DNA of 17,704 bases, from IMG/VR virus record IMGVR_UViG_2541047122_000031, one strand, 5' to 3'. Source of the DNA: a virus. Its lineage: Duplodnaviria; Heunggongvirae; Uroviricota; Caudoviricetes. Positions 1 through 12,000 of this stretch are shown piece by piece; positions within the stretch are counted from its first letter, which is position 1; each line of letters opens with the position of its first letter. A program made the position numbers.

Positions 1-3000
1 ATGGACAACGACAAAATTGATCAACACAGCGACGAAATTGAAGTTGAGAGCGAAGAAAAAGAGCGTGGCAAAAAAATAGAAATAGATGAAGATCGACTCC
101 CCTCCCGGGCGATGGCAATTCATGAGCATATCCGCCAGGATGGTGAAAAAGAGCTGGAACGCGACGCAATGGCACTACTGTGGTCAGCCATTGCGGCGGG
201 TCTGTCGATGGGCGCTTCATTACTGGCAAAAGGGATATTTCATGTCGAACTGGAAGGTGTGCCGGGCAGCTTCTTGCTGGAGAATCTCGGTTATACCTTT
301 GGTTTTATTATCGTCATTATGGCCCGCCAGCAATTATTTACCGAAAACACCGTGACTGCGGTACTACCCGTCATGCAAAAACCGACAATGAGCAACGTTG
401 GCTTACTTATGCGGTTATGGGGCGTCGTGCTGCTGGGTAATATTCTCGGGACAGGTATTGCGGCGTGGGCATTTGAATATATGCCAATCTTCAATGAAGA
501 AACTCGCGATGCATTTGTCAAAATCGGCATGGATGTGATGAAGAACACCCCCAGCGAGATGTTTGCCAACGCGATCATTTCCGGCTGGCTGATCGCCACT
601 ATGGTATGGATGTTTCCTGCAGCGGGTGCGGCAAAGATTGTGGTGATTATATTGATGACCTGGCTTATTGCCCTGGGTGACACCACTCACATCGTTGTCG
701 GTTCTGTTGAAATCCTCTATCTGGTGTTTAACGGTACGCTGCACTGGAGCGATTTCATCTGGCCCTTCGCACTACCTACTTTAGCGGGGAACATCTGCGG
801 CGGCACCTTTATCTTCGCGTTAATGAGTCATGCACAGATCCGTAACGACATGAGCAACAAGCGCAAAGCAGAAGCACGCCAAAAAGCAGAACGTGCGGAA
901 AACATTAAGAAAAATGATAAAAACCCGGCATAAATGGCGAGGGTTTAAGCAATCGAGCGGCAGCGTACTTACCCCGCAGTCCATTAGCGGGTATACTCAT
1001 GCCGCATTGTCCTCTTAGTTAAATGGATATAATGAATATAAGTATTAAGTCATTGATTTAAATACAGAGAGCGCCGAAATAATCGTCATATCAGTACCCA
1101 TTTATGTACACATCCCGTTAAGCATGCCCCGCACTTCCGTACGGGGGCGTGTTCTTTACTCCACTCCCACTTTTTTGTTGTACTCGCGGTTAAACCGATC
1201 CACGGCAATTTTCATATCCCGCTCAACCGATTTCACCATCGCCGACTGTTGCGCCAGACTGAGAGTACTGTCGGCGTAAATGGCATCACGCTGTTTACGC
1301 AAATCCTTCAGTCTCTTCCGGGTATCCTGCATAAGCCCGTTCATCGACAATTTTCCGTTGTTCTCGTCAATGAACGCCGTTCTTTCTGCACCGGTCAGAC
1401 TCTTCAGCTCTGCGTGATACTGCGCAACCTCTGTCATCCGGTCGTACATCTTCTGCTGGTCAGCATACGGCATCACCTCACCTGAAATTTTCCCCAGGAA
1501 GGGCACCTGCTGTTCCGGTATATCAATACCATTCAGCGATTTCACCGCCGCATCCGTGGTTTTGGAAATGAAGCGCCCTGTCCCTCCGGAGATATAGTCC
1601 ACCCAGTATTTCAGCGATTCCGGTGTGATATCCACCGCGCCGGGACGGTACTGGCTGCCACCAGAGAACGCATTCAGCCAGGATGCAAACGCCTTGTACG
1701 CTTCTGGCGTTGAACGTCTTCCCAGCTGGCTGTCAGGTTTTGGTGTACCAAACGGCATGTTCTCCTGGTAAATCTGCGCCCCCATGAAGTTTTCATTCAT
1801 GGCAAGGTTCGCAAACGGACGCAGAATGGTCGGCGCTGCATTTTTCAGCAATGCCCCGGACAGTGTTTCCGACGTCTCACTGCCAATCGGGCTGAATGCA
1901 CCAAGCACACCACCAACAACATTACCGGCAGCACGGGACGCCGTCAGGTCACCCGCCGCCACACCTTCAGCAGTATGCCCGAGCAGGAAGAAAACGTTGT
2001 ACCCGTAAGGCAGAGGAATACTCCAGTACTCTCCGGCCTTGCCCCCGAACACCGATTTCATAATGACGAGGTTACGCTCTTTCACATGAGACGGCACCTT
2101 GTCATACCAGTTAACCCCGTCATCATCCTCCCCCGCAACACTGCGGTTAAGCGAGCCAAGCAGATAACCCGCTCCCACAGCTGCAAGCGCGATTTTCTGC
2201 GGTACATTGAGATTCTTCCAGCGAAGGCGCTCCAGTAACGGCCCGTCGCCATTAAGATGTCCGAGCGTTCTCACCAGGTTTGCGGTCCCCTGAATGCTGG
2301 CGTTGGCGAACATGTACAGCGAGTTCATCAGCGCTCCCTGCTCACCACGACGGTTAAAGTTCACCGTCATGTTTTTGGCAAGAGACGCCGCCTGCTGGCG
2401 TGACAAACCGGCATCACGGGCGTGTTTATAAGCTGACAGACGCAGTGCGTTTTCAACCGCACCGTTGGCATCCTCGACCAGGTTCAGGAACGAATTCCAT
2501 GCACCGATACTCTGGCCTTTCCATCCTCCCTTCGCCAGCGATACAAGGCGATCCATTTCCTTCTGCTGGCCTTCAAGGTCACCCATGTTAAACCAGCCGG
2601 TTTTACCTCCGTCCTCAACAAACTCTTTCCACACCTTCTGCCACTGCGCACCTTTGCCCGTGAGGTTTTTGCCACGCAGACTGGCGTATACGGCTGACAT
2701 AGCAGAACGGCTGTCTTTCACCACAGCCAGTGCGGATAAGTTATCCAGCCCTTTCAGTTTGCCGTCGCTCCTTCCCTGCTCCGCCTTCAGATTCATCACC
2801 GCTGTCTGCACGTCACGGATGAAGTTACTGACCAGGAATTCCGGGTTATACGACGTGTTCACCGTTGCCAGGAAGCGGTTAACTTTCCCCAGCGTACGGA
2901 TTACTGCGTTACTGGTTTCCGGTCCCATATTCTTCATCGCACGCATCAGGCGCGGATCATGGAGTTTGATGTAGTACGTTTTGCCGTTCTTTTTGGTGGT

Positions 3001-9000: not shown

Positions 9001-12000
9001 ATCATCATAGCCTTCGGTCATCGGCGTATTCAGCGCACGAACAGCACCCGGCGACATCTTACCGGTCAGCCATTCATCCGAGGCTTCAGCACCATCACTG
9101 ACAGCCTTACCGGTGACCTTCAGACCTTTACCGACAGTATCAGTGACCGCGTTTTTTCCATCAGGCAGGGTATCGATGACCTCATCAGCCCCCTTGCTGC
9201 CACCGGCAAAAATATCCTGAACAGTTGCGACACCCGGCAGCCCCATACGGCTGAACTCATTTAAAATACGCGCCCCTGTTTTCACTGGGCTTTGAATCAT
9301 CGCATCACCGAGTCCACGGGCCATTTCCCCTGTTCCGCGGACGGACTGAGCGGCCCCCTTCCCTATAGTTGGTAATACATCGCCCAGGCTGAACGACGTG
9401 CTGTTATCCTTCCAGCGATTGGGGTCGGAGAAAAACGCATCATAGCTGTCTGTCTCGCCAGGCTGCTGAATGTTCAGGCTGTTACGGTTCTGGTTACCCA
9501 ATTGCGCTTCAGGGCGCTGTTCATCTGAAAAAGCCATACAGACTCCATAAAAAAACCCGGCACAATGACCGGGTATCAGGAAATGGTATTAACGGGAATG
9601 GTGAATTACTGCGCGTAATTCTGTTTCAGTCCACGGATAAACTCAGATGCAGAGGCTGCGCTATCATCTCTGGCCTGTTCACTCTTAGCCTTTTGAATAC
9701 GGAGAAAATTCGCATACCCGTTTTCCAGCAATTTCTGATTCTGAGGCTCCAGCATTTCTGGCTGACGGGAGGCCACTTCTCTGGCGAATGCCTGCTTATC
9801 CGGATCATCACCCGCCCAACTGGTAATCACTTGTTGAATTTTTTGCTGCTGAATTTTCTGCTGATACTGCGGCAGTCCCATCGAGGCGTAATATTGCGTC
9901 ACGGCTCCCTGTGCATCACCACCGTCCTGTGCAACTTTTATCGCTACCTGGCTGGCTCCTTTCTGAAGTTGTTCCGCAGAAAGTCCCTGCTGCTTCGGCT
10001 TGAAATAACCGTAATTTTTCGAAATTTCCGCGAATTTACTGCGATCCCTGACAAGAGCGACAGCCTTATCAACAGGCACCGCCAGCACAGTTTGATCATC
10101 AGGATGTGCGCTGCCGTATTCCGTAACGGGTTTATGTGCGGTGGAGCCATCGCTGTATGTGAGATCAAGGCCGATAAGTACGTACCCTTCCTGCTGCGCT
10201 GGTACGATACTGCCAATCCTGGCCTCTTTTATCGTTTTGTCCCCGGTTGAATCAGGCATGCCAATACGCTGTTGTAGTTCCGGGGCAAACACGCCGGAAA
10301 GCACATCGAGATTTTCCGGGGTATTCAGCGAATCGATCGCCATGTCCGGCTTATCACCAAAGATTTTTTGCAGGTTGATCACGGCCTGACCCGCTTTCGC
10401 TGCATAGCCTTCGTTTGACATAAGAATTAATGGATGTCCCTTTGGCAGCTGCCCGAACAGACGCGTTGCAGCCTCCTGATCGCCAGCCTCAATTGCTTTT
10501 CCAAGCGCTTCCATTAGTGGCTGGCTATGGGCAATCATATCGTTATACTCAAGCCGTCGCTGGTTGTATTTCTGCAACTGGAGTCGCTGCTGCTCCATAC
10601 CCAGTGACGCATTCCGGTAATTCTGGTTAGCGTTAAACTCCCTTTCCTTCAGTGCATAATTACGGTCGTCAACTTTGGCTCTGTAATCAAAGTTCCGCTG
10701 ATCAACGTTTTTATTATGTTCAAACTGAGACTGCGCAAACTCAAAATCGCGCTCGTTATTTTTCTGTTGCCGGGCAAGCTGTGCTTCACGCAGACCAAGC
10801 TCCTTACGACGGGTCATTGCCTGGTCAACGGTGCTGAATCCGGCAAGTAACCCCTGTGCAAATCCGCTCATTCACCACTCCTTAAAACAAAGAACCAGCA
10901 ATGCCGCCAATTACTGCTCCAGCAACAGCACCAACAGGACCACCAACGGATGCGCCAATAGCCGCCCCCGTACCAATGCCCGTACCGATATTCTGCTTGT
11001 TCTGCGCTTTCTGTTGCGCCGCCATCTGTTTGTTCGCAGCCTCAATTTCTTCACGTCGTCTGTCTGCGTCACTTATTCCCTGTAATGCCTCACGCCGCGA
11101 CTGATTTGCAATATCCAGTAAACCGTATCCCATATTGCCCCCTTACGCTGCCACCAGTTGGCCGCCAACACTCAGTTTCTGTCTTGCCGGTGCAGAAGCC
11201 CCCGTCAGAATATTCATCTGGCGATCCTGTTCGGCTTCACGGATACCATTTTTCGCGCCAGCAATTGCCAGGGCATTACGTAACCCCAGCGTATTACTGT
11301 CGGGATTATCCGGGCGGTTTACCCCGTATCTCGCCATCTGGTTATCCTGCGCCATCTGCGCTGTACGGAGACTGGAAGTGGCAAGGCCTCCCACCCGTGC
11401 AAGCTGTGCATTCATCAGACTGTTGTTCTCCCCAAGGTCAGCCAGCCTTGCTACACGGGGTAAATATCTGGTGCGCCAGTCGTCGTATTGCTGGCGGGTC
11501 AGCGCTGCGGATGTCTGCCAGTCCCCCTGAGGGCGGGCTGCTCCGGTATAACCGTATCTTGCAAGTGTTTCGTATTTACCGTACTCCATAATCACAGTCT
11601 CCAGTTCTGAGCCTGATGCTGAATGGCATTAGCGCCGGTGCCAGGTGTTTTAGCACCGCCACTTCCTCCGCTACCGCCAGCCTTATGCATCGCATATGCA
11701 CCAGCCGCACCCAGACCAGCGCCAACAAGAGAGGCTCGCCCCTGCTGTTTCGTAAACGCCGCCTGTGCATCCGATTTAGCTTTTGCCAGACTGCTGTCTG
11801 CCAGAGAGTTAAAACTCTGTAACGCATCCGCCTTCTGACCAGAACCGAGAGCAGCAACATCCTGTAGCCCGGCAACATACTTATCTGCCTGCGATACCTG
11901 CCCCCGTGTGGTTGTGTCAATCTGCCCGGTTACCTGGTCACTCTGGTTCGCATTCATTACCGCATTAAAACGACCACTGGATGGGTCAACGCCGGACTGA

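Follow-up and report, generated by a model that had tools for sequence, protein, structure and literature searches.

What does one very long gene contribute when it stands at the extreme end of a Shiga toxin (Stx) prophage? The question is raised by a 17,704-nucleotide (nt) stretch of DNA from a tailed virus (IMG/VR record IMGVR_UViG_2541047122_000031), which was analysed over its whole length and is referred to here as the window. The window represented the right (late-region) end of a 933W/Sp5-type Stx prophage (Sepvirinae), showed 96.8% identity to VT2phi_272 over 98% of its length, and matched 281 phage records. Its last phage gene ahead of attR was an open reading frame (ORF) of 2,793 amino acids (aa) on the minus strand (1156..9537), which began with ATG, ran without an internal stop, matched phrog_616 over the full length of its product, and was identified as the orthologue of Sp5 ORF80 (ECs1242) and of phi24B vb_24B_48 (gp47), the latter being 96% identical across the full length. 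Stx phages spread Shiga toxin genes among Escherichia coli, and roughly an eighth of their genome is devoted to this gene; its product is central to two questions, namely by what means a short-tailed phage gets across the envelope once bound to BamA, and what enters the cell besides DNA. The evidence points, with a probability that we put at roughly three in four, to a capsid-internal ejection protein with enzymatic passenger domains, proper to the short-tailed phages of the Sepvirinae (933W/Sp5/phi24B type).

This reading is carried by orthologues 96-97% identical to the giant protein, which are translated from the late transcript and present in the virion, and in whose absence DNA is packaged and infection fails. 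Mondal et al. (2016, PMC5155283) deleted ORF80 (ECs1242, 2,793 aa) of the Sp5 prophage of E. coli O157:H7 Sakai: excision took place and DNase-resistant DNA was packaged at wild-type level, plaques and lysogens were abolished and were restored by complementation, and the particles were DNA-filled and non-infectious. In a 2026 preprint on phi24B (10.64898/2026.04.10.717836), gp47 was detected in purified virions with 10,962 peptide matches, second to the 17,998 of the capsid protein; its LPD5, LPD1 and LPD38 domains were noted, the protein was not seen in the map, and a role as ejection protein was proposed. The abundance of this 96%-identical orthologue in virions agreed with the first-pass annotation of the window, made from sequence alone, which had taken the giant protein to be a virion component. 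The same annotation had supposed that homologues might exist as unannotated hypothetical proteins, and this did not hold: the gene was present in 427 of 5,426 complete E. coli genomes, RefSeq names its products LPD38/LPD5 domain-containing proteins, and two papers have studied it. Since published work already covers the gene, the need for it in infection, its product in virions and the polyvalent domain content, no new entity is described here. What is added is the placement of both of its HExxH motifs in conserved domains that appear zincin-type from sequence (one of them without a family model), the correction of two published labels, which had made MuF-C a metallopeptidase and had given the protein an AAA+ ATPase, and the definition of a C-terminal unit of ~900 aa (C-module) as the part that stays constant in thousands of giant phage proteins that vary elsewhere.

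Genome packaging at wild-type level in the deletion mutant bears directly on whether the protein might be an internal head core, a scaffold-like component that organises or pressurises the packaged genome and is not delivered. Such a component would be abundant in virions and invisible after symmetry averaging, and would be in keeping with a very large protein that has a long disordered linker; yet the DNase-resistant genome was packaged normally without it, and enzymatic domains (zincins and a PBECR RNase-like domain) make little sense in a pure structural filler, so that this explanation appears very improbable.

The choice of strains in the Sp5 tests is equally informative, as producer and recipient were both K-12 MG1655 (PMC5155283); therefore, a restriction-modification mismatch cannot explain the defect of the ORF80 deletion, and anti-EcoKI restriction as the cause of essentiality was ruled out. 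The first-pass annotation had suggested a possible anti-defence function, that is, an accessory injected effector for anti-defence or host takeover, comparable to P1 DarB and dispensable on a defenceless host. Polyvalent proteins are indeed predicted to counter host defences, the C-terminal part of the giant protein matched a PHROG labelled 'DarB-like antirestriction', and some relatives carry DarB-type methylase and helicase domains. Against this, the Sp5 orthologue was needed for any plaque or lysogen on passage from MG1655 to MG1655, the giant protein itself has no methyltransferase or helicase domain, and the 'DarB-like' match was confined to the LPD38 region that it has in common with Bcep22 gp75. 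A protein of the P1 DarB type (LPD36, N6-adenine methyltransferase, SF2 helicase) was also rejected, with no methylase or helicase match and no Walker A motif. An accessory role thus found no support in the comparison with Sp5, and we regard this explanation as unlikely; the passenger domains may serve anti-defence or takeover beside the essential role.

The architecture of the protein is that of the phage-type polyvalent proteins, of which it is a member, as the first-pass annotation had proposed. According to Iyer et al. (2017, PMC5512222), such proteins combine several unrelated domains including LPDs, contain zincin-like metallopeptidase (MPTase) hubs together with MuF-C/PBECR domains, and are encoded among the late or virion genes of portal-terminase phages; in all of these testable defining features the giant protein agreed, its gene closing the late region of a Sepvirinae phage. 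Stx and 933W are mentioned nowhere in the main text of that paper. Four Pfam domains were assigned well above their cut-offs: LPD5 (PF18799; aa 1051-1200, 5938..6387, minus strand; 153.6 bits against 27), LPD1 (aa 1361-1440; 84.1 bits against about 27), MuF_C (PF18819; aa 1750-1839, 4021..4290, minus strand; 64.2 bits against 27.6) and LPD38 (aa 2476-2681, 1495-2112, minus strand; 166.7 bits against about 27). No other Pfam family was significant in any segment of the protein.

Ahead of these domains, the protein starts with a Gly/Ala-rich N-terminal module (aa ~100-440; 8218..9240, minus strand), which matched phrog_37568 at aa 170-439, includes the earliest hydrophobic 19-residue segment of the protein (aa 181-200), and is found in few relatives, in every one of which it is N-terminal. 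It is followed by a low-complexity linker rich in Pro, Glu and Gln (aa ~441-900; 6838..8217, minus strand), with a combined share of these three residues of 18-33% per 100-residue block over aa 401-900, and of 23-33% in all but one of the five blocks; the linker had no Pfam match and was nearly restricted to the Stx-phage lineage. Both this linker (aa ~440-900) and a Gly/Ala-rich hydrophobic segment near the C-terminus (aa 2445-2467) had been pointed out in the first-pass annotation and were recovered, as was its statement that the protein has no P-loop and no signal peptide: the Walker A motif [AG]xxxxGK[ST] was not found by motif scan, and the N-terminus is hydrophilic, with no signal peptide-like stretch. 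The uninterrupted frame and the two HExxH motifs that it had reported were likewise reproduced. These motifs, HEWFH (aa 1284-1288; nt 5674-5688, minus strand) and HEIIH (aa 1551-1555; nt 4873-4887, minus strand), exceeded the count of 0.034 expected from the composition of the protein itself, and two or more were present in none of 5,000 shuffles of its sequence.

The first HExxH motif lies in a zincin-like domain of CLCA_X type (aa 1182-1440; 5218..5994, minus strand), which fills the gap between LPD5 and LPD1 and includes LPD1. The NCBIfam model CLCA_X (NF041907) matched aa 1182-1437 with E = 2e-43 over model positions 3-245 of 250; its score of 148.6 bits is below the curated cut-off of 260 bits, which is set for stand-alone proteins. 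As this match runs nearly from end to end, Pfam LPD1 would correspond to the C-terminal half of the same peptidase-type domain. CLCA_X zincins are a family of ~250 aa borne mostly by phages and plasmids, often within very long proteins, with the consensus HExxHxxxD (Lenart et al. 2013, PMC3650047); here the match is to a domain and not to a free-standing protein, and HEWFHSLD at aa 1284-1291 conforms to the active-site consensus. In every alignable homologue (31-59% identity) the motif read HE[WYF]xHxxD[NDSG], the H, E, H and D of HEWxHxxDN were nearly invariant, and the sequence AH[YF]E (AHYE in the window) was conserved ~20 residues upstream. For their common phage-type MPTase, Iyer et al. 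(2017, PMC5512222) describe a His that closes strand 2 and an Asp at the third position past HExxH, with which the pattern agrees. By profile search, then, the proposal of at least one Zn-metallopeptidase-like module in the first-pass annotation gained a candidate in this CLCA_X-type domain with its conserved HEWxHxxDN.

The second motif lies in a further zincin-like domain (aa ~1474-1715; 4393..5118, minus strand), with a conserved HExxH...E pattern that is gluzincin-like in sequence and with no Pfam model. H1551, E1552 and H1555 were invariant in all 23 homologues reaching the region, a few homologues carry the variant HExxxH, and H1522, Y1525, N1538, P1564, Y1567, E1602 and A1605 were also conserved. 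The predicted order of secondary structure elements was helix, strand, helix, two strands and the HExxH helix. Peptidase_M76 was the sole hint in Pfam, and a weak one (E = 0.15); a homologue search with this domain alone returned close enterobacterial relatives only, with no informative Pfam labels. In a structure model of both domains the fold matches were mostly to zincins and were weak: none of the Foldseek matches in the PDB was significant, the best being anthrax lethal factor (E = 0.4). A common origin of the two domains found no support, as hhalign aligned only the 16-residue motif helix (probability 7%). Neither motif falls within the MuF_C domain, and MuF-C is classed as a PBECR predicted RNase rather than a peptidase (Iyer et al. 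2017, PMC5512222). The label 'Muf-C metallopeptidase domain' in the phi24B preprint is therefore a mislabel.

The most widespread part of the protein was its conserved C-module (aa 1887-2793; 1159..3879, minus strand), compact and mostly helical, of which LPD38 makes up about a fifth; for Iyer et al. (PMC5512222), LPD38 is a domain of ~190 aa without a known function, and here it belongs to a unit of ~900 aa. The AlphaFold2 (AF2) model of the module was a single unit, with a predicted local distance difference test score (pLDDT) of 86.2 and a predicted template modelling score (pTM) of 0.83. Searches with aa 1887-2793 matched 8,605 representative clusters, 4,790 of them at E <= 1e-30. Among the 150 representatives listed, the C-module was present in 149, the second zincin in about 50 (often directly upstream of the module), the LPD5/CLCA_X unit in 22-32, MuF_C in about 10, the N-terminal module in about 8 (always N-terminal) and the linker in 1-4; in every full-length protein of this set (up to 5,181 aa) the match reached the extreme C-terminus. 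Other partners of the C-module in relatives were ART, methyltransferase, InPase and PBECR1 domains. No solved structure in the PDB, phage internal proteins included, matched the module as a whole, and no meaningful match came from sequence and profile searches of the PDB run with the full protein and with the two alignments. Relatives of the C-module were found in podophages of Vibrio, Ralstonia, Burkholderia and Bacillus. As a separate observation, the Methanosarcina virus MetMV encodes a 3,002-aa protein (584-9592) with a C-module 29% identical over 88% of the module; this being an archaeal tailed virus, the module crosses the boundary between bacteria and archaea.

In order to place the protein among known systems, it was compared with its closest counterparts and with more distant giant proteins. 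Sp5 ORF80 and phi24B gp47 occupy the same position as the gene in the window, at the end of the late region beyond lom and the 421-aa gene, have the same or nearly the same length (2,793 or 2,807-2,811 aa) and show allelic differences only, mostly in aa 1-440; the prophages differ in integration site, which is argW/yfdC in the window rather than wrbA. The Burkholderia podophage proteins Bcep22 gp75 and JC1 gp69 ('DarB-like antirestriction protein', 4,515-4,602 aa) have the C-module in common with the giant protein (28% identity over 82%), are virion-associated, and close the structural module, as the giant gene does; the portal and capsid of these phages are related to those of 933W. The Burkholderia proteins carry an SLT transglycosylase, a DarB-type methylase, an SNF2 helicase and LPD3, whereas the Stx-phage protein has LPD5, two zincin-like domains and MuF-C in their place. 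In coliphage PTXU04, the 2,198-aa LPD38 protein PTXU04_00025 was critical for efficient infection in a knock-down screen.

T7 gp14-16, P22 gp7, gp16 and gp20, and the virion RNA polymerase (vRNAP) of N4 are comparable to the giant protein by functional analogy only. All of them are stored in the podophage head and are needed for infectivity, not for DNA packaging. No RNA polymerase or transglycosylase domain was found in the giant protein with Pfam. N4 vRNAP, too, is giant and polyvalent and contains an MPTase domain (Iyer et al. 2017, PMC5512222); an N4-type identity was rejected, as none of the Pfam domains of vRNAP was present and BLASTP against it returned nothing, and so was a relationship between the C-module and the N4 C-terminus (probability 0.3% when the profile of the module was aligned to aa 2100-3500 of N4 with hhalign). 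A tape-measure protein, which the first-pass annotation had discounted by gene position, was also excluded: the lineage is short-tailed, the gene lies downstream of all tail genes, and no tape-measure family matched.

For the phages of the 933W/Sp5/phi24B type, the following mechanism is proposed. The giant protein would lie inside the capsid and, on release of the needle, would leave by way of the portal-tail channel, either before the DNA or together with it. The C-module, with or without the second zincin, would act as a chassis for loading into the head, exit, and crossing of the envelope by a short tail, and the N-terminal module, LPD5, the CLCA_X zincin and the MuF-C/PBECR RNase-like domain would be exchangeable passengers delivered into the cell. 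The two HExxH domains, predicted zinc metallopeptidases, would in the likeliest case cleave the polyprotein or its partner proteins to functional fragments; less likely, they would act on host targets.

Several observations weigh against an ejection protein. In the phi24B virions, peptide counts of gp47 were highest in the uppermost gel slices (10.64898/2026.04.10.717836), which suggests that the virion protein is mostly still large and little processed, and argues against extensive processing in the virion. By Pfam and hydrophobicity analyses the protein contained no peptidoglycan hydrolase domain and no convincing transmembrane helices, with two weakly hydrophobic stretches only, so that a channel-forming role can be proposed solely by analogy. 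The usual cell-wall peptidases belong to the M15 and M23 families, whose motifs are other than HExxH. Because HExxH zincins are not usual cell-wall peptidases, the idea of the phi24B preprint that a metallopeptidase of this protein degrades peptidoglycan is weak.

The remaining observation is that no binding of an anti-fibre antibody was seen on particles lacking ORF80, which points to a tail-assembly defect and led Mondal et al. to place the gene under 'tail formation' (PMC5155283). In that case the protein would be a tail-assembly factor or structural tail component, building or stabilising the tail on the filled head and not ejected. Heads of the mutant were normal and DNA-filled at the same time as the antibody failed to bind, and the gene follows the tail genes in the late operon, as would be expected of such a factor. 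On the other hand, in the phi24B reconstruction the portal, adaptors, nozzle, needle and fibres are all explained with no contribution from the abundant gp47; the antibody result was given as data not shown, and loss of an internal protein could destabilise the tail secondarily. Nor could the argument of that paper from an AAA+ ATPase (COG1483) be reproduced, since a Walker A motif is missing from the giant protein and neither Pfam nor NCBIfam returned an ATPase family for it. A tail factor therefore has little probability in our estimate, and an ejected internal protein is preferred.

A wider reading of the C-module, to be taken as speculative, is that, often together with the upstream zincin, it serves short-tailed phages universally as a delivery chassis without structural precedent, one that would load into the head, exit by the tail and build a conduit across the envelope. 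If this were so, hundreds of different enzymatic passengers would have been bolted on by evolution, Pfam's 189-aa LPD38 would be a mere fragment of the chassis, and such phages could inject into bacteria whatever enzyme is fused to the N-terminal side of the chassis. Of moderate interest are the structure and role of this ~900-aa module and the activity of the two zincin-type domains.

The start of the gene and the sequence preceding it were also analysed. The hairpin before the start codon reported in the first-pass annotation was found between the 421-aa gene and the giant ORF, as a terminator-like hairpin with U-tract (9549..9574, minus strand) whose stem-loop (9574-9555) has 7 pairs and a 6-nt loop and is followed by seven T's; the arrangement of hairpin, U-tract, GGAG and ATG was kept in VT2phi_272 and phi24B. 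Its folding energy was not exceptional relative to shuffles (z = -1.2), and a terminator function is consequently putative; in the region, 17 terminator-like sites were found against 11.8 ± 3.4 expected, with no clear enrichment. Late transcription in lambdoid phages, once modified by Q, passes through terminators, and Q, pR' and qut are annotated in the phi24B record. In VT2phi_272 and phi24B, the start is annotated at an in-frame ATG that lies 13 codons further upstream, within the hairpin (2,806-2,811 aa). As the corresponding codon reads ATA in the window (9574-9576, minus strand), and all three share the downstream ATG and the GGAG ribosome-binding site that precedes it by 4 nt (9542..9545, minus strand), position 9537 is likely the true start of the giant ORF.

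The genes preceding the giant ORF had been taken for cargo in the first-pass annotation, an error of description, as most of them encode virion proteins. On the minus strand, in order of increasing distance from the giant gene, they were a 421-aa gene (9606..10871), orthologous to Sp5 ORF79, which is essential, and to phi24B gp48 (1,634 virion peptide matches); a gene for an 83-aa glycine-zipper protein annotated as 'bacteriocin' (10882..11133), of which only a trace was present in phi24B virions; a 150-aa gene (11143..11595), orthologous to phi24B gp50 (129 virion peptide matches); and a 243-aa gene (11592..12323; RefSeq start 12248), orthologous to phi24B gp51 (523 virion peptide matches) and with a weak match to a 'virion structural protein' PHROG. 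Existing labels of the 243-, 150- and 421-aa genes are hypothetical or 'transcription factor?'. The Vibrio podophage 252E42.2 keeps the order of glycine-zipper protein, ~420-470-aa protein and giant protein, and in Bacillus phage Palmer the giant gene comes after the virion peptidoglycan hydrolase and closes the structural module. These four genes and the giant ORF look like one internal or ejection-protein cassette.

At the other side of the giant ORF, the attR core (1008..1032, unstranded; annotated as attR in the VT2phi_272 record) marks the junction between prophage and host, which agrees with the position of last gene before the host that the first-pass annotation had given to the ORF. 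From inspection of the sequence, we take the core, at about 1003-1032, to be a 5' fragment of the tRNA gene argW, and this fragment identifies argW as the integration site. No intact tRNA was found at the junction in a tRNA scan of the window, and an Rfam scan of the window matched no family. On the host side, positions 1-933 contain a 310-aa formate/nitrite-transporter gene, presumably yfdC (yfdC-like).

Two further observations were made upstream of the cassette. A 46-aa ORF (MSQKSLITVTICMTVIFTIWMLHGSLCEFRLNLWGAEFAAFLQCKQ; 12800-12940, minus strand) has a Hok-like hydrophobic N-terminus and an SLCE motif, is annotated as 'MokW-like host killing' in VT2phi_272, and matched no Rfam family in its region; lying between lom and the virion-protein cassette, it probably represents a moron encoding a type I toxin. 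Finally, the G+C content dropped to 0.41-0.45 between 13000 and 15000, compared with about 0.52-0.56 elsewhere, a dip that spans lom and the gene for a 205-aa 'membrane associated protein' and is consistent with a moron insertion within the late operon.

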